NCBI GenBank assembly: GCA_965369815.1
Contig: CBDUQS010000001.1
Span: 4,108 to 68,107, forward strand
Length of the DNA stretch: 64,000 nt
From: an uncultured bacterium
Lineage (GTDB): Bacteria > Patescibacteriota > Gracilibacteria > UM-FILTER-43-11
Reading direction: 5' to 3'
The stretch's first letter is position 1; each line of letters starts with the position of its first letter. A model generated the notes under the pieces. The model worked only from the letters and a program-made list of their open reading frames with translations. It was not told the origin of the DNA and searched no databases. Positions 2 to 29,734 of the stretch are shown piece after piece. Both the position numbers and the translations under genes were made by a program.

Positions 2-1852
2 AAAGACATTATTTCGCTCAATAAAAACATCGCTTTTGCGGGTTACGACAATCTAAAAGAAGGGGCGACGTCGTTGGCAAATCAAGATTTTGAACGAGCC
101 AGCGTCTTTTTCGAGGGGGCAGAATCTTCATTTGAGGAGCTTCAAGAAAACACCTCTTTTTTAACCGCACGCGCCAATCAATACTTAAAATCCAGTTTAT
201 ACCTCGATACCGCTCAAAAATTGATTGAAAGTGGCGTGGGGGTATCAAAGATCAGTCAGGAATTAACACAGCTGCTTTCAGATGCGCGTGATATCCCAAA
301 AGTATTTGTTCAGCAGAACCTAAACGACGATCAATCGGTACAATTAACAACGCTTGTGAATGCACAAAAGAGTCGTCTCCAGAAAATCCTGATGGAAGCC
401 TCACTTTTAAAGAAAAACTTAACCACTCTGAATGTCGACACGTTGCCGAAAGATTTGAGAGAAAAACTTGAGGTCGCTCAGGGGTATATCAGTCAGTTCG
501 TAACAGCCTTGAGCGAAGTGGATCAGAACTTTGAAGCCGCTTTGACATTACTCGGAGACAAAACCCCTCATCGTTATTTAGTGCTCTTCCAAAACAATCA
601 CGAAATGCGCGCGACCGGCGGGTTTATTGGTAGTTATGCAATTGTAGACGTAAACGACGGCGCGATCACTAAAATGGAGGTGAAGGACGTCTATGAAACC
701 GACGGACAGCTATCTGAATTCGTTCCGCCCCCACCAGGTATCAATAAGGTGGCCGATCAGCTTTACTTGCGTGATGCCAATTACAGCCCCGATTTTCCAA
801 CCTCTGCTCAAAAAATCATGTGGTTTCTAGAGCATAGCCGTGGGCCAACCGTCGATACCGTCGTGGCGATTGACCAGACGATTGCTGAAAAATTATTAGT
901 GCTCACGGGTCCTGTCGTGGTCCCTAGCTTTCCATTTGCGCTTCGATCAGATAACTTCAACGACCTTCTCTCTTACAATATCGAAGCCAAGCTTTCAGAA
1001 ACCTACACTCCAAAACAGATCTTGATCGACTTAATGCCCGTATTTAAAGAAAAACTACTGTCTTTACAAGATTTCTCACCCCTCAACGATCTTGCTCACA
1101 ATTTAATCGGAAGTCGTCACATTCAGGTTTATTCCGATCACGCAGGCGTTCAAACATTGGTCGAAAAGCTAAAAGTAGACGGTCGCATGGTCGCCGCTGA
1201 ACCCGATATGGATTATTTATCAGTTATAACAACGGCGATTGGCGGGAACAAAAGCGATGCCTTCATAAAAACCAACCTTTCTCATCACACCGAGGTGGGA
1301 AACATGGGAATGATAACCGATCACCTAACTATCCAAAAAAACCACACCTGGAACGAAAGCGACTTCGCCTATTGGAAAAAGCTCATGGACCGATACGGAA
1401 TGGGTAAGCTCAACGAAGCCACCCTTCGCTTCATCCACGGAGGAGGGGATAACCTCGATTACATGCGCGTATACGTTCCTAACGGCAGTCTTTTGATCGG
1501 ATTAGAAGGAGTGGACATTGAAGACATGGATTCCTACGAAGAACTCGGATACACCGTATTTGCCTTCACCTTCGGCCCCGTTTCCGCAGGGGAAATGAAA
1601 GAAGTAAAGCTGAGCTACAAATTACCTTTCGAGCTCAAAACCGAAAATCCAATGGACGTCTACCGCTTCATCGCTCAAAAGCAGGCAGGCACCGAAAACA
1701 TCACACTAACAAAAAGCCTGCAAACCTCTGGCTATCTACAGGTTTTAGATAACTACCCGCCTGTTCAAAACAGTGCTTTTACGCTTTATCCACAGTACGA
1801 AACAGCATTGGATAGTAATAAGATTTTCCTCTCAGCAATTGGGGGGAGCTAA
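2..1852 (+). CDS. DUF4012 domain-containing envelope protein, 5' end outside window
   Basis: The frame is open from base 2, with no stop upstream of the TTG at 74. The motif HRYLVLFQNNHEMRATGGFIGSYAIVDVNDG is the core signature of the DUF4012 family. Confidence 0.8.
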   Translation, partial: KDIISLNKNIAFAGYDNLKEGATSLANQDFERASVFFEGAESSFEELQENTSFLTARANQYLKSSLYLDTAQKLIESGVGVSKISQELTQLLSDARDIPKVFVQQNLNDDQSVQLTTLVNAQKSRLQKILMEASLLKKNLTTLNVDTLPKDLREKLEVAQGYISQFVTALSEVDQNFEAALTLLGDKTPHRYLVLFQNNHEMRATGGFIGSYAIVDVNDGAITKMEVKDVYETDGQLSEFVPPPPGINKVADQLYLRDANYSPDFPTSAQKIMWFLEHSRGPTVDTVVAIDQTIAEKLLVLTGPVVVPSFPFALRSDNFNDLLSYNIEAKLSETYTPKQILIDLMPVFKEKLLSLQDFSPLNDLAHNLIGSRHIQVYSDHAGVQTLVEKLKVDGRMVAAEPDMDYLSVITTAIGGNKSDAFIKTNLSHHTEVGNMGMITDHLTIQKNHTWNESDFAYWKKLMDRYGMGKLNEATLRFIHGGGDNLDYMRVYVPNGSLLIGLEGVDIEDMDSYEELGYTVFAFTFGPVSAGEMKEVKLSYKLPFELKTENPMDVYRFIAQKQAGTENITLTKSLQTSGYLQVLDNYPPVQNSAFTLYPQYETALDSNKIFLSAIGGS

Positions 1853-1912
1853 AAATATTTTAAATTCAAGCATATAAGAATTTTGATATTTTTAAATATT
1901 CTATAGCTAGGG

Positions 1913-1940
1913 TTGACAAAATAAAAAAAATAGCTATAAT
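1913..1940 (+). promoter_or_regulatory. sigma70-type promoter (TTGACA-16-TATAAT)
   Basis: ttgaca at 1913-1918 and tataat at 1935-1940, with an A-tract spacer. It lies directly upstream of a GC-rich structured segment. Confidence 0.65.
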
Positions 1941-1946
1941 ACATGC

Positions 1947-2133
1947 AATAAATTAGAAAAATCCCTGAGTCCCGATACGTCGGGATTGGTTGTAAACTTC
2001 GTTCGCGGAGGAAGCCAGCCATCTGGTATGAAAGCCAGGTTCAGGAGAGCGTTATCCACGTTGGAGCGGACCTTCCAGCACCCATTGTTAATCAATCGAT
2101 TAATCGTAGGTGCTGTGAGATCGGCTTCTTTTT
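1947..2133 (+). ncRNA. candidate structured RNA (unknown family), or structured 5' leader of the 2291 gene
   Basis: About 50% GC between much more AT-rich flanks. Hairpins: tcccga-tacg-tcggga at 1970-1985; CAGCACC (2076-2082) with GGTGCTG (2109-2115), enclosing ttaatc/gattaa. Long-range pairing GAAGCC..ATCT with AGAT.GGCTTC, followed by a T-run at 2129-2133. No ORF. Confidence 0.5.
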
Positions 2134-2290
2134 GAATAGTGAGTCATCTCCATGTTCTTTAAAAACTACTTGCGAAAATCGGTTATAACTTTCAGATTCC
2201 AACTTTTAATAAGTTTGAGCTTGGAGGTTGTATCTGATTTTAAAACCAAGGCGATTCCCGAGAAGGGTAAGCCACATAGTAGAGATCGAA

Positions 2291-2932
2291 ATGCAGAAAA
2301 TTGAAGCAACCCTTTCAGCAATGCTAGTTGTTGGCTTCGTCGCAACAGTGCAAGCCGAAACCCCCACTCAGGTTCAGCGCGAGGAATTTAACCGATTTCT
2401 AGACGAAGGTGTCATCGATCGTGTTGAGCTGGAAGATTTTTTGGTGCATTACAGGGGAATGCCCATACCAGAGGGGTGCACGAGAGCTGAGGTTGATTAT
2501 GGTGTTCACTACGAGCAGTGGAAGGAGGAGGGTAGTCTCAGAATAGCTCCGTATATCCTACGTGGTGCAGGTTGGTCAGGTCCAGCTCCCCGCTATAGGA
2601 ACAAGAAAGTTGTTAAAGAGCTCTGCTGGTTTAGATTTAAATCTCCCCAAACCTTCAAGGAAGTACGGGAGAAAAACGAAGCTGGCAACTTTCTTCTGGC
2701 TGATCTATGGGAACTTAAGGCATTTGCTAAGGTGTTTCCTGAGGTATTTCTTGAGATTGAGATCCAGTGGAGGATGTTAGCAGTTGGCAGCTGGTGGGTG
2801 GACTCTGTTGACTACCTCAAGTTTCCATTTCTGCACAAGAATGGCGATGATCTCCATCTCTCTATAAATCGTAATGATGGGGAGAAACAAGGGTGGAAAT
2901 CCGACACTCGCTTTCTTGCCATCCGCAAGTAG
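2291..2932 (+). CDS. hypothetical secreted protein (signal peptide; weak DUF1566/C-type-lectin-like resemblance)
   Basis: The internal ATG at 2291 gives MQKIEATLSAMLVVGFVATVQA, a signal-peptide-like N-terminus. The protein is Trp-rich and ends ...RFLAIRK. GC is higher than in neighbouring genes. Confidence 0.65.
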   Translation: MQKIEATLSAMLVVGFVATVQAETPTQVQREEFNRFLDEGVIDRVELEDFLVHYRGMPIPEGCTRAEVDYGVHYEQWKEEGSLRIAPYILRGAGWSGPAPRYRNKKVVKELCWFRFKSPQTFKEVREKNEAGNFLLADLWELKAFAKVFPEVFLEIEIQWRMLAVGSWWVDSVDYLKFPFLHKNGDDLHLSINRNDGEKQGWKSDTRFLAIRK

Positions 2933-2940
2933 TTTTTCAA

Positions 2941-2992
2941 CTCCCAACCGTCCGTCATGGCATCGCGCTGTGGCGGACGGGAGGTATTTTTT
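2941..2992 (+). terminator. rho-independent terminator (GC-rich bulged hairpin + T-run)
   Basis: ctcc..cgtccg (2941-2954) pairs with cggacg.ggag (2974-2983), followed by tttttt at 2987-2992. Confidence 0.65.
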
Positions 2993-3057
2993 CATGCCTA
3001 AAAAAGTGCCAAAACTCACAACTCTTAATAAAATCATTTTATCAGCGATTTGGGGAG

Positions 3058-3996
3058 CTAATTCTCTTTCATTAGTGCCGTTTCAAGCTTAGCTCTGAAC
3101 TCATCTAAGTTATCTAGAGCCTTTTTATGGGAAAGGGAAAACATTCTCACCACCTCATTAAATGAAGATAGTGATTGTGCGACATCAATGCTGTGTTTCA
3201 AAAACATTCCACAAAAACAGATATCAACATTTTCAGGATTAAGTTTTTTGATCAAAGGCTGAATCGCCTTAAGTGTAGTTCCAGTCGAAGCATCATCTTC
3301 TATTACTAAAATATTATTAGCACCTGTTGGCTTTGTAGTATTTTTACCCACCTTCCTCCAGATTGGATCTTTTTTCCAATGCTTGCGCCACTCTAAAAAC
3401 CTTGTATTAAGCCCAGCTATTTCTACTAAATTCCCTAATGAAGCCCCTCCATTTAATATACAAAGTACCAAATCATAATCCATTTTACTGATTTCGATTG
3501 CAGCATTAACCTGAGTAAAGGATATATTTTTTTCAGGTAGATTGTGAATTTGAGAATACTGACTGAGCAAGTTACGGATTACTGCCATTTTTTCAGCCAG
3601 CATTCCCCTTTCTGCCACAAGTCTCTCAACCGTTTCTGGGTTACTGGTTGATGTGGCACATTCTTGAATTGCACGGTTGGCAGTGTCTTGGTCACAAAAT
3701 TTCAAGGCCACATCTAATAAGCACGGTTCAACGGAACCATCTTTATAGGTAATCCCGTTAGTTTTCACGAATTGAATAGCTGGCGAAAGATCACCCAATA
3801 ACTCTGACCATTTATATATCATATATAATTCTCTCCTTTCAATTGACAGACTAAGGAGCTCTCTAATTCGCTTTACAGCTCCAATCTTCTCTTCCTTTGG
3901 AAGTTTGTCTAAATCTCGATTCGATTCGACACCCTTTTCAAAGATAAGAAATTCGTTTAGTGCAATTGTTTTTTCGTTATATTCAGTATATTCCAT
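3058..3996 (-). CDS. phosphoribosyltransferase-domain protein with unknown helical N-terminal domain
   Basis: Type I PRTase PRPP-binding motif ILVIEDDASTGTTLKAI in the C-terminal half. The N-terminal ~170 aa have no motif I recognise. Confidence 0.7.
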   Translation of the reverse strand: MEYTEYNEKTIALNEFLIFEKGVESNRDLDKLPKEEKIGAVKRIRELLSLSIERRELYMIYKWSELLGDLSPAIQFVKTNGITYKDGSVEPCLLDVALKFCDQDTANRAIQECATSTSNPETVERLVAERGMLAEKMAVIRNLLSQYSQIHNLPEKNISFTQVNAAIEISKMDYDLVLCILNGGASLGNLVEIAGLNTRFLEWRKHWKKDPIWRKVGKNTTKPTGANNILVIEDDASTGTTLKAIQPLIKKLNPENVDICFCGMFLKHSIDVAQSLSSFNEVVRMFSLSHKKALDNLDEFRAKLETALMKEN

Positions 3997-4015
3997 GGAT
4001 ATTTTTTAGAAATTT

Positions 4016-4043
4016 ATTATACTGAATTTTTTTATTTTGTCAA
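4016..4043 (-). promoter_or_regulatory. sigma70-type promoter (TTGACA-16-TATAAT) for the PRTase gene
   Basis: The reverse complement reads ttgacaaaataaaaaaattcagtataat. The first 17 nt are identical to the promoter at 1913. Confidence 0.6.
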
Positions 4044-4127
4044 ACAAAAGAAGGCTTAATATAGCCCAATCCAAACAGGAAATAAATTTGCAGTACCTCA
4101 TGATCAGCTAGTTTTTCAGTATGAACT

Positions 4128-4955
4128 CTACCTCCGCCTCTTCAGCTCATCATAAAGTGCCTCTTCCATCACTTCCACAGGAGGCTCCTGATCGAAGAAA
4201 AGTCGGAACTGTTCAACGGCCTGATGCAAGAGCATTCGTTCACCCGAAATAGTTTGAGCTCCCGCTTTTTTAGCTTCTTTTAAAAGTTGAGTGTCCAGTG
4301 GGTTGGTAATAATATCCATCACCACCGCATGAGAGGGGATTTGTTCGGCGTGGAGGAGTGACTCTTGTGTATTGGGGGGCATTCCGACGGGTGTGGCGTT
4401 GATGATGATGTCGAAATCAGCTACAGCAATCTTTCCATGATCAATGGCTTCAATCTCAAATTCCTTCGCAAGTTCCTCCGCTTTTTCGATGGTACGATTG
4501 TAAATATAGATGTCAGATTGAAAGTCCTTTAGGCTATAGGCAATAGCCCGAGCCGCTCCGCCTGCACCCATTACCAGAACTTTTTTAGCAATCAAATTGG
4601 TCTTTTCTCGCAGTGCCTGTATCGCGCCCATTGCATCGGTGTTGTAGCCGATCAACTTGCTGTCTTCGTTAACCACGGTGTTCACCGAACCCACAACCTT
4701 AGCGAGTGGATCGTAATGATCCATATAGCCCATAATCTCCAGTTTATAGGGCATAGTAACACTAAATCCACCAATGTTATTCAAGTCGCTTTCATAGCAA
4801 AAATTAGCCAGCTCTTCAGAGTCTTTCGGGTCAATATCAATCAATCGATATTCCGCGTCTAACCCCAAATGTTTAATGGCCGCATTGTGCATAGCAGGGC
4901 TGAGCGATTGGCGAACCGGATGCCCAACGATTCCGAATGTTTTTTTCATATTCAA
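4128..4955 (-). CDS. aroE: shikimate dehydrogenase
   Basis: GHPVRQSLSPAMHNAA substrate motif and GAGGAARA NADP-binding motif. Length is typical. Confidence 0.92.
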   Translation of the reverse strand: MNMKKTFGIVGHPVRQSLSPAMHNAAIKHLGLDAEYRLIDIDPKDSEELANFCYESDLNNIGGFSVTMPYKLEIMGYMDHYDPLAKVVGSVNTVVNEDSKLIGYNTDAMGAIQALREKTNLIAKKVLVMGAGGAARAIAYSLKDFQSDIYIYNRTIEKAEELAKEFEIEAIDHGKIAVADFDIIINATPVGMPPNTQESLLHAEQIPSHAVVMDIITNPLDTQLLKEAKKAGAQTISGERMLLHQAVEQFRLFFDQEPPVEVMEEALYDELKRRR

Positions 4956-5000
4956 ATAGTTATCAAATGGCTGTCAGCTCTCCCGAATACTCGGGATCGC

Positions 5001-5023
5001 GCTTTCAGATTGCTTTCAAATAG
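5001..5023. repeat. left arm of the 23-bp inverted repeat flanking the four-helix-bundle gene
   Basis: gctttcagattgctttcaaatag. Its reverse complement matches 5465-5487 at 21/23 positions. Confidence 0.85.
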
Positions 5024-5024
5024 T

Positions 5025-5405
5025 CTACTTTTCCAAGTCATTAATTATTACTTTGATGAAGTTTAAGAGTTTAATTGAAAGATTTTTATATTGATTTAAG
5101 AAGTATTCATATTCCATTTTATCAATATATTTCTTTTTATAAAGCATAATAATATGACTCTGAGTTTCATCGCTTGATCCTAGTGATATATTCAAAAATC
5201 TTATTAACTCCTTTTGATAGATTCTTTTGGCATAGCCTTCAGCGATGTTTGCTGAAATAGAACTAGAGGATCTGATTATCTGGCTATACTCATTGATCCT
5301 CCAATAATTATTAATCTTTTTTGCTTGGCTTTCGATTTCTTCAGCTAATTTTATGGATATTTTATATATCTTTAGTTCACTAAAATGCATAATTTTATAA
5401 TTCAT
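5025..5405 (-). CDS. four-helix-bundle protein (23S rRNA intervening-sequence protein / Avd-like family)
   Basis: Family-typical core IIRSSSSISANIAEGYAKR...FLNISLGSSDETQSHI. 126 aa. Confidence 0.85.
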   Translation of the reverse strand: MNYKIMHFSELKIYKISIKLAEEIESQAKKINNYWRINEYSQIIRSSSSISANIAEGYAKRIYQKELIRFLNISLGSSDETQSHIIMLYKKKYIDKMEYEYFLNQYKNLSIKLLNFIKVIINDLEK

Positions 5406-5464
5406 TTAAATTCAAAATAGATTGTCAGATTAACTAAAATTAATGACTGAATCAAACAAAAAAG

Positions 5465-5487
5465 CTATTTGGTAGCAATCTGAAAGC
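5465..5487. repeat. right arm of the 23-bp inverted repeat flanking the four-helix-bundle gene
   Basis: ctatttggtagcaatctgaaagc, compared with the reverse complement of 5001-5023, ctatttgaaagcaatctgaaagc. Confidence 0.85.
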
Positions 5488-5496
5488 AATTTGAAT

Positions 5497-6807: not shown

Positions 6808-6914
6808 AGGTTGAAAAATTAAGGAAATTAATCACTAACTATTACCATATCATAAAATGTATATGTGTACAACATAATAGCTCAGAGCTCATATCCTAAA
6901 CCCGAGATCAGAGA

Positions 6915-8378
6915 TTATTTTACATCCCTCGCAAGAACGAGTCCGTCGAGACGAGGTTCCCATACAATTCCTTTCTTAAGGGCGTAAAGTCTTGATGACT
7001 CGAAGAGGGGAATTCCAATAAGATCCTTATCAACCAATTCCATAATCTGCTGCAGAGTTTGAAGGCGAATTTCGGGGTTGAGTTCCTGACGGCTTTTTTC
7101 AATCAATTTATTCACAAAGACATTCTTATATCGCCCATTATTAAATTCGCCCTCGCTATGAATAAAGTTATCTAAAAAGTCACCCGCATCCCCATTTTCC
7201 GCCTGCCAGCCAATCACGAAAAGCTGAGATTCATTGTTTTTAATGCGATCCAAAAGTTCTTCGGGGGGGATAACGTTGTCTTCCACCAAGAAGCCGGCAT
7301 CTAAAAGCTGTTTTTTTACGTAATCGGTAAGTGTTCGATAGGTGGCCAAAGAGTCGAGAGTGATTTTTTTACGTTGTTCACCAAATAAGTTCTTCGCTCG
7401 TTTTTCTTCCGAAAATTCAGGAGCGGATATAGTGGGGTTGTATCCAAAAACTCCAGGAGCAATGAATTGAGAAACCTGACGCACAAAGTCGTTACCAATT
7501 TCTTCAATACGATCGGGATTAAAAATGCTTTGAATGGCTTCACGAATCGAACGATCGGCAAGAAGAGAGTCATCTAGCTTAAACATCATAAAATTCACCT
7601 CCAGGCTATAGCTGGTTTTTACTTGATCTTGAGGAAGGCTAAGCGCTTGATCACGTGGAACGGCTACAAGAATATCAATTAAATCTTTTTCAAAATCAGT
7701 TTGTCGTTGGTTTTTATTCTTAACAACAGAGTAATTCACATTCTTATAAGTGGGCATTCGCCCCCAGTAATCCATGTAAGCTGAAAGGGAGAGGTTACTT
7801 CCTTTTTCCCAATTTTCTACACGATAGGGCCCAGTTCCCATTTGCTCCTTAGGAGAAATAAAGAATTTAGTTAATTTTGAAAGAATCAAAGGATCCGATT
7901 CCTTGGTAATAATTTGAATTGAAAAGGGATCGATAATTTTAATTTCATCAATGGTGCTCAGTAGGCTTTCCATCTGACTACCTCCGTTTTTAAGGGCATT
8001 ATCAAGACTACTGACAACACTATCAGCATTAAAAGGAGTTCCATCATGAAAGGTAACATCTTTACGAAGTTTGAATTCCCAAATCGTTGGATCTAGATTA
8101 CCCCAAGATACCGCCAAGGCAGGGACTATTCTTAGATTTCGGTCAAAACCAACTAACCCTTCGTAAACATTAGCGGTTCGAATCTGATTATTAAGATTTA
8201 GGCTGTGTTGAGAAAGGTTGGTGGCAGGGGTATTAAGAACAATCTCGAGAGTACCACTTTCAAATCGTTGAGGCCCAAGTATTTTATTAGGAAGAGTGGT
8301 AAAGAAAAAGCCTTTATTAAGAAAAACAATAAGGGCGGCAAGAATGAGGAATCCGATAAAATAATCTTTTTTTGTCAT
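6915..8378 (-). CDS. ABC transporter substrate-binding protein, family 5 (peptide/nickel type), membrane-anchored, orphan
   Basis: ANVYEGLVGFDRNLRIVPALAVSWGNLDPTIWEFKLRKDVTFHDGTPF is typical of SBP_bac_5. N-terminal TM segment. No permease or ATPase gene nearby. Confidence 0.85.
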   Translation of the reverse strand: MTKKDYFIGFLILAALIVFLNKGFFFTTLPNKILGPQRFESGTLEIVLNTPATNLSQHSLNLNNQIRTANVYEGLVGFDRNLRIVPALAVSWGNLDPTIWEFKLRKDVTFHDGTPFNADSVVSSLDNALKNGGSQMESLLSTIDEIKIIDPFSIQIITKESDPLILSKLTKFFISPKEQMGTGPYRVENWEKGSNLSLSAYMDYWGRMPTYKNVNYSVVKNKNQRQTDFEKDLIDILVAVPRDQALSLPQDQVKTSYSLEVNFMMFKLDDSLLADRSIREAIQSIFNPDRIEEIGNDFVRQVSQFIAPGVFGYNPTISAPEFSEEKRAKNLFGEQRKKITLDSLATYRTLTDYVKKQLLDAGFLVEDNVIPPEELLDRIKNNESQLFVIGWQAENGDAGDFLDNFIHSEGEFNNGRYKNVFVNKLIEKSRQELNPEIRLQTLQQIMELVDKDLIGIPLFESSRLYALKKGIVWEPRLDGLVLARDVK

Positions 8379-21544: not shown

Positions 21545-23053
21545 ATGAACAAGGGAAAGCATAAACATACAGCCGATACTGAACTAAGTAGATTAAGAAA
21601 TAAGTTTAGTAACAAGCCGGATTCACTATCCGAATCTCAGCGCAATCGTCTTAAGGAATTGTTAGCTAGCAAAAAGGAAAAGAGGGGGCTTACTGCCAAT
21701 GAACAGGATATGATTAGGCGGCTTGGTATGAGCCGTCGGAATTTTTTAAGAATCGGATTAGGTGTTGGAAGTGCTACCTTAATAGGTAGTGTTTATGGCA
21801 TTGGTGGGTTGTTACAAGATGAAAGTACTGACAAATCGGCGCAGGGAAAGTTGGTAGAAAAGCCTAAAGAGATAAAAAAGTCAGAAGATTCATCCGAACA
21901 GTTCCCCTTGCCTGAATGGGCCAAGGAAATTGAGTTGCCTAAGGTTGAATTTAGTGATGAGCCTTTTGATTGGAGTGAAGAAAAAAAAGCTCAATTTTAT
22001 TTGCCAGATGGAATGAGTGCTGAAAAGAGTAAAGTGCTGACCAGAGAATTTGAGGGCAAATTTTTGAAAACTAGGCATTTATTGGAAAAAGCTAACGATT
22101 TAGAAAAACGTATACAAATATTAGACAATTTCCTTTTCAGTTTAATAGAAGGTTTCTTAAATTTAGACACTGAAAATAAAATTAAAGGAGAAGAAATAAA
22201 GTTGAATACACCACAGTTTTGGCAAGTATGGGAGAAGGTATCCAGAACCTTAGCTTTTAATGATATATTTGTTAGCCTTGGAAAATTTGCTGATTTTACT
22301 TTTCATAAAGTAAAAAGATTAGGAAGATGCAGAGTTCAAAATGCAGAAAACAATGTCGAAGTACCGATTATGGCAACCACTGAAGATTGGTGGCATTTTT
22401 CGGCCAAAAATAAACTTTCAATGAAAGATATAGGGACTTATTATGATTTAAATAATGCCATTGTAATGCATCAGCATAAGGGTGCTTCTGCTTTGGGAGA
22501 TTTAATACGCACCATATCGCCAGATGTTTATCGTAATTTTATGCCTAGCAATGTTCACTATGAAAGATTAAAAAAGGCTTACACAGATGCTCATGTGTTT
22601 CATGAGGGGGCCCATGCAGCACTATCCAGAATTTATAAATTTCCTATAAGGCAAGGTGATGTGGCTTTTGGCAGAGTCCCTAAAATTAATTTTGCGGATC
22701 TCCCGATCGAATTTCAAACTGCGACAGCAAGAGAAATTCACGAATTAGGATCTGTGGGTTTTGGATTAATGAATGCGGGAATATCAGCAAAATTATATGC
22801 CTTAAATGCTGCTACGATAACGAAAAGAAAGGCATATTGGTTATCTTCATTGATGTTGAGATCAGAAATCACGAATTTACCGAATGTGAGCGATGAGCTT
22901 AAAGATCAGATTCATAGCAACGCCTTAAAAGGGAAAAAAATGGGTAGAGTGATGGAGTTGGCTTTAGCCGGAGCCGATGATGATCAGCTTTTTTTCATTG
23001 GCGAGAAGATGGCCAAACTTTGTTTATATTTAATTCAGCAAGAAAAAAAGTAA
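21545..23053 (+). CDS. hypothetical exported/membrane-anchored protein with HExxH motif and RR-type hydrophobic segment
   Basis: MSRRNFLRIGLGVGSATLIGS (Tat-like or signal anchor) at residues ~62-82. VFHEGAHAAL contains HExxH. Confidence 0.65.
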   Translation: MNKGKHKHTADTELSRLRNKFSNKPDSLSESQRNRLKELLASKKEKRGLTANEQDMIRRLGMSRRNFLRIGLGVGSATLIGSVYGIGGLLQDESTDKSAQGKLVEKPKEIKKSEDSSEQFPLPEWAKEIELPKVEFSDEPFDWSEEKKAQFYLPDGMSAEKSKVLTREFEGKFLKTRHLLEKANDLEKRIQILDNFLFSLIEGFLNLDTENKIKGEEIKLNTPQFWQVWEKVSRTLAFNDIFVSLGKFADFTFHKVKRLGRCRVQNAENNVEVPIMATTEDWWHFSAKNKLSMKDIGTYYDLNNAIVMHQHKGASALGDLIRTISPDVYRNFMPSNVHYERLKKAYTDAHVFHEGAHAALSRIYKFPIRQGDVAFGRVPKINFADLPIEFQTATAREIHELGSVGFGLMNAGISAKLYALNAATITKRKAYWLSSLMLRSEITNLPNVSDELKDQIHSNALKGKKMGRVMELALAGADDDQLFFIGEKMAKLCLYLIQQEKK

Positions 23054-29266: not shown

Positions 29267-29298
29267 TTAAAATACTAAGGTGAGCGATGGTGTTTGTC
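29267..29298. repeat. left arm of the ~30-bp inverted repeat
   Basis: ttaaaatactaaggtgagcgatggtgtttgtc, compared with the reverse complement of 29525-29554, ttaaaatactgaggtgagatggtgtttgtc. One mismatch and a 2-nt indel. Confidence 0.9.
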
Positions 29299-29366
29299 TG
29301 AAAAAGTACCTCGCCCGAAATTTCCTTTCTACTGGTCATAGTTGGATGAATATCAGAAAATACACA

Positions 29367-29501
29367 TCACAAGCTAGCTTTGGATTCATTCGGACATTCA
29401 ACCCCTTTGCGCCGAGCGATAATCGTCCGGACAACGAGCTGAATAATGCCGACCGCTACAAGAATAAATGGTAAAATGCTTACAAATGTTTCCCAAGTCA
29501 T
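29367..29501 (-). CDS. 44-aa hydrophobic peptide (type I toxin-like small membrane protein candidate)
   Basis: Hand translation gives MTWETFVSILPFILVAVGIIQLVVRTIIARRKGVECPNESKASL*. An SD-like aaagga lies 8-9 nt upstream. The ORF is below the length cutoff of the ORF track. Confidence 0.5.
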   Translation of the reverse strand: MTWETFVSILPFILVAVGIIQLVVRTIIARRKGVECPNESKASL

Positions 29502-29524
29502 TGGCAGATCCTTTCATTTGGATG

Positions 29525-29554
29525 GACAAACACCATCTCACCTCAGTATTTTAA
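29525..29554. repeat. right arm of the ~30-bp inverted repeat
   Basis: gacaaacaccatctcacctcagtattttaa. Confidence 0.9.
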
Positions 29555-29578
29555 TACGTTAAAGAGCAACGGATTCCT

Positions 29579-29607
29579 ATTTTATACAGACTACCTCTAC
29601 CTGTCTA
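29579..29607 (-). promoter_or_regulatory. candidate minus-strand promoter (TAGACA-17-TAAAAT) for the small-peptide transcript
   Basis: On the reverse complement, tagaca at 29602-29607 and taaaat at 29579-29584. It sits back to back with the carB promoter. Confidence 0.45.
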
Positions 29608-29636
29608 TTGAAAATTAAAAAAAAATCCACTAAACT
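29608..29636 (+). promoter_or_regulatory. sigma70-type promoter (TTGAAA-17-TAAACT) for carB
   Basis: ttgaaa at 29608-29613 and taaact at 29631-29636. Confidence 0.5.
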
Positions 29637-29734
29637 GTTTTGGAAAATGATCAAAAAAATCAATCCACATTTCGATTCAGCCTTAATCTGTGACGAGCAG
29701 GAGAGGGCTTATTTTTTATAATTCAAATTCATTC

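Follow-up and report, generated by a model that had tools for sequence, protein, structure and literature searches.

Which kind of element has come to lie between a Sua5/YciO/YrdC (tsaC-type) gene and carB, two divergent genes of an uncultured Candidatus Peregrinibacteria bacterium of the candidate phyla radiation (CPR)? The locus is part of a 64,000-nt stretch of DNA (the window) on contig C1 of a metagenome-assembled genome (MAG), here called G000, which measures 1.14 Mb in 56 contigs and is 95.7% complete. Between the two genes, the minus strand contains an open reading frame (ORF) for a 44-amino-acid membrane peptide, enclosed by the two arms of a long inverted repeat. The element was found in only one further MAG, that of a sister species in the same genus (G001), and all species-to-species identities given here compare G000 with G001. 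We tentatively favour the explanation that a small membrane peptide is encoded here by a single-copy gene confined to one genus, quite possibly controlled by the structure of its mRNA in a hok/mok-like, type I toxin-like manner; as a toxin-antitoxin gene it is putative. Our best reading of the sequence comparison is that the element was inserted into the short divergent promoter region of tsaC and carB.

The inverted repeat is real and far above chance expectation. Its left arm (29267-29298; 32 nt, reading GACAAACACCAUCGCUCACCUUAGUAUUUUAA on the minus strand) and its right arm (29525-29554; 30 nt, minus strand, UUAAAAUACUGAGGUGAGAUGGUGUUUGUC) pair with one mismatch and a 2-nt CG bulge, exactly as a preliminary description of this locus had stated. 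Base-by-base pairing and a repeat search both recover the arms, the latter splitting the match into 18 nt at 94% and 13 nt at 100%. By comparison, an outer 18-mer half-arm with at most three mismatches is expected by chance only 0.16 times per window. The arm boundaries are sharp, in that similarity stops at the arm ends. Between the species, 31 of the 32 nucleotides of the left arm are identical, with the bulge kept, and 29 of the 30 in the right arm. Together the arms are thus 97% identical, compared to 73% at the fourfold degenerate sites of tsaC and carB, which served as a neutral yardstick. The arms therefore appear to be selected rather than relics, and the comparison clearly points to strong purifying selection in both lineages. 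As RNA, the minus-strand duplex of G000 would consist of 29 Watson-Crick pairs and one G-U pair, where the plus strand would have an A-C mismatch. Summed over both species, the minus strand has three G-U pairs and one mismatch, the plus strand one G-U pair and three mismatches. These counts lean weakly toward a function in minus-strand RNA.

In contrast to the near-invariant arms, most of the sequence between them and the tsaC-side flank are strongly diverged. Identity is 42% in the tsaC-side flank, 49% in the 3' untranslated region (UTR) and ORF interior, and 39% in the spacer from the right arm to the peptide ATG, whereas elsewhere the genes of the two species are 85–91% identical and intra-operon spacers can be aligned. 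Judged by these values, the interior is diverged past the level of neutral DNA. Exchange of interiors between conserved arms is one possible cause of this saturation.

The element is restricted to one genus. Other genera of the same family likewise carry aspS-tsaC and carB in divergent order, 27–170 nt apart and without the element. These genera keep the short gap and a recognisable carB promoter (TTGAAA-17-TA(A/C)ACT), and therefore the ~340 nt from the left arm to the carB promoter constitute a genus-specific insertion. The carB promoter itself (TTGAAA-17-TAAACT, 29608-29636, plus strand) forms the right boundary of the element and is not part of it. BLAST and a fuzzy pattern search found no second copy of the arms in G000. 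Further copies were found neither in 31 family genomes (pattern search) nor in 401 genomes of the class (covariance model built on the left block), nor in GTDB-wide contigs, JGI metagenomes, viral contigs, phages and plasmids. Two matches to the arms in JGI metagenomes lie inside unrelated coding sequence and were attributed to chance, and a possible degenerate third arm seen by eye in the left flank of G001 had a chance-level score. An Rfam scan of both species' loci by E-value gave nothing credible.

The enclosed ORF (29367-29501, minus strand; translation MTWETFVSILPFILVAVGIIQLVVRTIIARRKGVECPNESKASL) encodes a single hydrophobic helix followed by a basic tail, RTIIARRKG. The preliminary description had recognised one transmembrane helix and a charged tail here, and translation and hydropathy bear this out, with a maximal 19-residue Kyte-Doolittle mean of 2.35 in G000 and of 2.88 in G001. 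The G001 ortholog is syntenic, lies on the same strand and is 41% identical; transmembrane helix and basic tail are common to both. With lengths of 44 amino acids in G000 and 51–57 in G001, both are small hydrophobic peptides (<60 amino acids) with a membrane helix. Identities at codon positions 1, 2 and 3 are 0.41, 0.64 and 0.32, respectively; hence conservation is strongest at position 2, the one that determines hydrophobicity, and does not exceed chance at position 3. To us this substitution pattern probably reflects genuine constraint on coding in an allele that is very old or exchanged. The same place, the same strand, a transmembrane helix, a Shine-Dalgarno (SD) sequence and coding-type substitutions together support the view that the ORF behaves as a real gene.

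The SD sequence deserves attention in this genome. AAAGGA (29509-29514, minus strand) lies 7 nt ahead of the peptide ATG and complements the 16S rRNA 3' end UCCUUU, while its counterpart in G001 is AAGGAGA, 5 nt before the GTG of that ORF. Both are perfect complements of an altered 16S tail (anti-SD UCUCCUUU); the 16S rRNA of G000 ends in ...GGAUUAUCUCCUUU in place of ...GAUCACCUCCUU. The corresponding 16S 3' end, on contig C44, reads ...GGATTATCTCCTTTAAAGG, with the anti-SD core UCUCC and not CCUCC. Genome-wide, the SD core precedes only 3.3% of 792 long ORFs of G000 against a background of 10%, so that it is depleted, in agreement with the earlier remark that such sites are rare in the window. 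From its sequence, the organism seems to have largely abandoned SD-led initiation. We also considered whether the 3' arm imitates the 16S anti-SD and rejected this idea, the 16S end of this genome being UAUCUCCUUU.

The right arm itself includes a translation start. On the minus strand it reads ...ACUGAGGUGAG-AUG-GUG-UUU-GUC, with an SD-like GAGGUGAG and the AUG (29536-29534) of a leader ORF. This leader ORF (MVFVHPNERICQ plus stop; 29498-29536, minus strand) has 12 codons, and its TGA overlaps the peptide ATG as ATGA. According to the folds, the peptide SD in G000 sits within a small AUCC/GGAU hairpin that the leader ORF crosses. In G001 the leader ORF (MVFVVYHYFPRRKACLLKKP plus stop) has 20 codons, starts at the same arm ATG and likewise ends as ATGA on an ATG of the peptide ORF. 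Both species thus keep the arrangement, despite a spacer of unequal length with no more than 39% identity. An upstream ORF partner of this kind precedes 4.5% of 1767 mostly random ORFs of 40–70 amino acids in G000. The presence of the leader ORF in two species is suggestive, not proof, of a function.

Upstream of the right arm, the preliminary description had proposed a minus-strand promoter, TAGACA-17-TAAAAT (29579-29607). This candidate is indeed present, with a consensus score of 10 out of 12 and a predicted start at ~29572, and it is conserved: the sister species has TAGACA-17-TAGAAT, and 49 of the 53 nucleotides from 29555 to 29607 are identical. It sits back-to-back with the carB promoter. 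We infer that it functions as a promoter, in which case both arms would be placed on one mRNA, the right arm as its 5' arm and the left arm as its 3' arm, the latter complementary to the SD and AUG of the leader ORF. At the 5' terminus of the predicted mRNA, the minimum free energy (MFE) folds contain a small hairpin (29557-29571, minus strand; CGUUG-CUCUU-UAACG), identical in G001, for which a role may be presumed. The pairing of the mRNA ends that had been suggested earlier is recovered when the minus-strand transcript is folded, with an MFE of −99.5 kcal/mol and z = −4.3; the plus-strand fold is nearly equal (z = −4.1), as for any inverted repeat. The 30-bp 5'/3' duplex appears in the MFE fold as well as in the centroid fold, and G001 has kept it.

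A second structure competes with this duplex. A local hairpin (29282-29316, minus strand; GGGCGAGGU-(16 nt)-ACC-A-UCGCUC) can form from the inner half of the 3' arm combined with the 2-nt bulge and an extension beyond the arm. The G001 form is GGGCGGGGUG...CACC-A-UCGCUC, in which one A-U pair has become G-U and one extra pair is gained. Because the hairpin takes the inner half of the 3' arm, which the duplex also needs, the two structures are mutually exclusive. The extension (29299-29335, no strand assigned; TGAAAAAGTACCTCGCCCGAAA..TCCTTTCT) lies inside the left arm and has no counterpart at the right arm; 20 of its first 22 nucleotides are identical between the species, and 25 of 34 over the entire segment. 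In the folding model, conservation of the bulge and of the one-sided extension is accounted for by the local hairpin. A mirror hairpin can form on the plus strand, so that either strand may carry the functional one; the extension would be either a 3'-UTR hairpin or a piece of a short plus-strand RNA. The leader ORF and the competing 3' hairpin, neither of which was part of the preliminary description, both fit a hok-type design.

How would such a locus operate? We infer the following course. Transcription from the conserved minus-strand promoter would start near 29572 and yield one mRNA with both arms. The 5' arm would supply the leader ORF with its ribosome-loading site and AUG; in translating the leader, ribosomes would melt the SD hairpin and terminate at the peptide AUG (ATGA), resulting in coupled synthesis of the peptide. 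Once transcribed, the 3' arm could pair with the 5' arm into the 30-bp duplex, which would bury the leader-ORF start and form a substrate for RNase III, a gene for which is present in G000. The local hairpin built with the bulge nucleotides would offer the 3' arm an alternative partner, and the mRNA could thus exist in open and closed states.

Several of these features have parallels in established systems. Pairing of the 5' and 3' ends, an occluded ribosome-binding site, a leader ORF (mok, ldrX) and RNase III are all found with type I toxin mRNAs (PMC11228461, PMC5416894). In aapA1, the full-length mRNA is locked by long-distance 5'/3' pairing over the translation start, activity needs a rearrangement and RNase III degrades the duplex (PMC5416894). 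Compared to hok/sok, with mok, of plasmid R1 and its chromosomal homologues, our locus shares a single-helix membrane peptide, a leader frame that would have to be translated for the peptide to be made (mok there, an ORF of 12 or 20 codons here), a peptide SD in a hairpin, a 3' end predicted to pair with the 5' end into an inert form, an alternative structure and RNase III. It differs in that there is no sequence similarity, and that the leader ORF abuts the peptide ORF while mok overlaps most of hok. Moreover, the duplex is 30 bp and near-perfect instead of the short imperfect helix of hok, no Sok-like antisense gene with a conserved promoter and no terminator of its own were found, and SD sequences are hardly used by the CPR host. 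With aapA1/IsoA1 of Helicobacter pylori it shares the predicted long-distance 5'/3' pairing that hides the translation start. In contrast, the IsoA1 antisense RNA is well defined over the 5' UTR and none is defined here, and no similarity between the peptides was detected. Type I toxin modules are known chiefly from Proteobacteria and Firmicutes, and their peptides are mutually dissimilar and hence difficult to find. Among the open-access papers and preprints searched, we found none describing a type I toxin in CPR bacteria (Patescibacteria). If the mechanism holds, the locus would be a new variation on the type I design, in a CPR bacterium.

A number of observations weigh against this reading. 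One concerns the antisense RNA. The preliminary description had pointed to an extended −10 element on the plus strand, TGgTAAAAT (29469-29477), as its possible source; the motif is present in G000, but it is not conserved, since the aligned sequence of G001 reads GGGACAAT. Comparison of G000 and G001 revealed no conserved antisense promoter at all. Each species has a plus-strand promoter-like site upstream of the right arm, at non-homologous positions. The candidate of G001 (TAGACA-17-AATAAT) lies ~40 nt further on, nearer the right arm, and G000 has a second, weak candidate inside the arm. Because the plus-strand candidates differ in position between the species, no antitoxin gene is established. 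Conservation of the left block would be accounted for just as well by a short plus-strand RNA that starts from the left-arm TAAAAT; no usable −35 for this TAAAAT was found in G000, and the hairpin is not directly followed by a U-run. Control at the 5' end is a further difficulty. The 5' region alone has no excess of structure compared with shuffled sequences (z = +0.45 and +0.97), and thus translation would go unchecked until the 3' arm has been transcribed. This contrasts with hok and aapA1, which carry metastable hairpins (PMC5416894), as no such hairpin masks the start here. In G000, a signal scan detected nothing like a terminator from the ORF to tsaC; without a terminator, the ORF may be merely the first cistron of a tsaC-aspS transcript.

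The duplex and the peptide add to these objections. A near-perfect duplex of 30 bp is unusual for type I systems and resembles a DNA-level repeat as much. The ends of the AapA1 mRNA are paired through an 11-bp helix (PMC5416894), which doubles as terminator in an mRNA that has no leader ORF, whereas our locus combines a far longer helix with a leader ORF. As a caution, duplication of repeats at the DNA level is common in this lineage. Only two genomes bear the element, so that covariation in the stems is anecdotal. The G001 peptide ORF has an upstream GTG with its own SD as an alternative start, and initiation there may make the ATGA overlap incidental. Furthermore, the peptide cannot be assigned to any toxin family: Pfam, NCBIfam, PADLOC and PHROGs gave no significant match. 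A Pfam-A scan of both orthologs returned only chance-level matches of transmembrane type (E ≥ 0.02) and nothing for the Hok/Gef model, and NCBIfam gave no Hok/Gef match either. A word-index search found no homologues, nor did an exhaustive profile search of 1.84 billion representative proteins, in which the sole match, a repetitive 856-amino-acid protein, was dismissed as spurious. By its sequence, the peptide appears to lie outside all known toxin families. The type I toxin-like interpretation of the preliminary description thus stands with respect to the selected ORF, the arms and the promoter; its antisense promoter is unconserved, and terminator and early masking of the start site are lacking. 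In an unlikely variant, the arms would be the fixed frame of a self-regulating RNA cassette with an interior exchanged or diversified much faster than the rest of the genome, still resembling a toxin-antitoxin system of type I, whose panhandle is reopened by the competitor hairpin or by a leader-mimicking plus-strand RNA from the left arm.

Long inverted repeats around genes are not rare in G000, and most belong to dispersed families (palindromic TTGTCAT... units, heptamer arrays). Repeats of 21–32 nt made of such units or arrays bracket small genes at C3:30362-30811, C21:11851-12234, C18:11631-11996, C18:4646-4945, C19:7492-7887 and C14:20284-21728. Among these are genes for four-helix bundles of the type known from rRNA intervening sequences, as well as a GIY-YIG and a pilin-like gene, and the pyrH-frr pair is bracketed likewise. 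At C32:340-1393, a single-copy 25-nt inverted repeat surrounds a consensus promoter and a 201-amino-acid ORF, with GC-rich structured sequence outside both ends. A 36-nt inverted repeat, all but unique, flanks the gene prfA (C2:21218-21253 and 22671-22706) and consists of two outward-facing copies of the consensus promoter TTGATT-17-TATAAT, spacer included. By analogy with prfA, we considered the arms of our element as duplicated inward promoters and rejected this, as G000 has no −35 at 16–18 nt and the similarity ends with the arms. The arms are a different case from the other bracketed loci because they are unique in G000, face inward and have a start codon inside.

Could the element be explained without a toxin? 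A doubtful but not implausible alternative is that a benign accessory membrane protein is encoded in a cassette processed by RNase III. The stem would then be part of the tsaC-aspS leader, its cleavage would free the small-ORF RNA from the tsaC mRNA, and no antitoxin RNA would exist. Stems that bracket rRNAs, and the intervening sequences of 23S rRNA, are cut by RNase III. The latter resemble our element in being repeat-bracketed inserts in a transcription unit that can enclose a small ORF within a long, RNase III-cleavable stem, and G000 has other small genes bracketed by long repeats, including those of the four-helix-bundle type. The lack of a terminator between the ORF and tsaC, the substrate length of the 30-bp duplex in a genome that encodes RNase III, and the failure to find a conserved antisense promoter in the two species also fit this explanation. 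Unlike 23S rRNA intervening sequences, however, the host transcript would be an mRNA leader, the product is a membrane peptide and not a four-helix bundle, and the arm holds a translation start. Processing by RNase III leaves unexplained why the leader-ORF start lies exactly within the arm, why the competing bulge hairpin is conserved and why the interior has diverged beyond neutrality. In addition, the left arm and tsaC of G001 are separated by a dispersed repeat whose hairpins resemble terminators, which argues against obligatory co-transcription with tsaC. It is very unlikely, in our judgement, that there is no peptide gene at all and that a chance frame lies open within a structured non-coding leader or small-RNA locus. 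Gene callers left the ORF uncalled in public assemblies, protein searches gave no homologue, and many chance ORFs of 25–64 amino acids overlap the region on both strands. Against this stand a transmembrane ORF retained on the same strand despite 49% DNA identity, the strongest conservation at codon position 2 with position 3 at chance level, and a matched SD in both species of an SD-avoiding genome. By comparison, the competing plus-strand ORF of 64 amino acids (29280-29474), which we considered and rejected, is conserved only in its arm-encoded residues.

Other explanations place the function in the DNA. An invertible ON/OFF segment, a slot for interior exchange or a pair of operators, with RNA pairing as a by-product, would account for arms that are near-perfect and sharp-ended, and for an interior and a tsaC-side flank diverged past neutral between conserved arms, as is expected of swapped interiors. 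Inversion would make the arm ATG read MVFV-stop, a would-be OFF state, and the duplicated promoter at prfA indicates that regulatory DNA modules do duplicate in G000. We nevertheless consider DNA-level action quite unlikely. In the 95.7%-complete genome, no serine recombinase of the resolvase/invertase family was found, and its one tyrosine recombinase is encoded on a different contig. The orientation varies neither between the two species nor among the three assemblies of the sister species, with four assemblies compared in total. The inverton suggested earlier is weakened accordingly. The conserved bulge and the one-sided 22-nt extension would be unexpected for recombination sites and are explained by an RNA hairpin, and the arms have no convincing inward promoter. 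A miniature inverted-repeat transposable element (MITE) or a decayed mobile element, with terminal repeats enclosing the ORF by chance, seems most improbable. In favour of a MITE is the insertion relative to the genera with a short tsaC-carB gap. The TTAA at the arm ends would fit a target duplication of TA or TTAA, although it is palindromic and such a duplication is indistinguishable from the repeat itself, and the empty site of the other genera cannot be aligned to the insertion point. Dispersed repeats also abound between the genes of G000, and in G001 one is inserted at a distance of 8 nt from the left arm. Like the Correia elements of Neisseria, the element is an insert of ~290 bp with ~30-bp terminal repeats and TA/TTAA ends in an intergenic promoter region. 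In contrast to MITEs, it is not dispersed in multiple copies: arm copies are lacking in the rest of its own genome, in the 31 family and 401 class genomes, and in the GTDB, JGI, viral, phage and plasmid collections, apart from G001. This refutes the idea, raised in the preliminary description, of a dispersed family. Neither a parent insertion sequence nor a related transposase was found, the arms appear to be under purifying selection in both lineages, and the interior is probably a selected ORF with a coding signature.

The surroundings of the element show further differences between the species. The dispersed repeat near the left arm of G001 is GC-rich, hairpin-rich and ~170 nt long; this copy (L038, about 2590-2760) accounts for the longer tsaC-side flank there. 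Copies in G000 are found at C12:5583-5746, C22:13562-13740, C20:13780-13849, C28:11153-11190 and about C23:9880-9970. An exact-protein look-up of tsaC retrieved contig L042 (GCA_023143585.1), which joins tsaC to ybaB instead of to the element. The junction lies inside this same repeat, which also follows ybaB in G000; L042 is therefore likely a chimera or a product of recombination at the repeat, and uninformative. The two species also differ by gene-sized insertions or deletions exactly at gene boundaries (window positions 1839-4129, 4962-5496 and 6898-6915 versus contig C110 of G001). These comprise two extra genes and a gene for 127 amino acids in G000 and a 209-nt insert in G001, between flanking genes that are 85–91% identical.

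On the other side of the element, the carB promoter and leader are identical at 124 of 127 positions between the species, above the level of coding DNA. The leader (29637-29734, plus strand) contains an ORF of 24 codons, MIKKINPHFDSALICDEQERAYFL, from the ATG at 29647 to the TAA at 29721. This ORF crosses a terminator-like hairpin (AGCCUU...AGGGCU followed by a U-run) directly ahead of the carB ATG. A short ORF, a hairpin and a T-run also precede carB in other genera of the family. From its sequence, the carB leader looks like an attenuator.

If the proposed mechanism is true, it would extend the type I design to a 1.1-Mb CPR genome of symbiotic type with a mutated anti-SD and scarce use of SD sequences, and it would do so in a gene wedged between two essential genes. 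The locus offers a natural example in which putative regulatory RNA ends are maintained at 97% identity around a coding interior that has diverged past saturation. Even if the peptide is no toxin, the locus would still exemplify a conserved mRNA panhandle that is formed over a long range and encloses a leader-ORF start.

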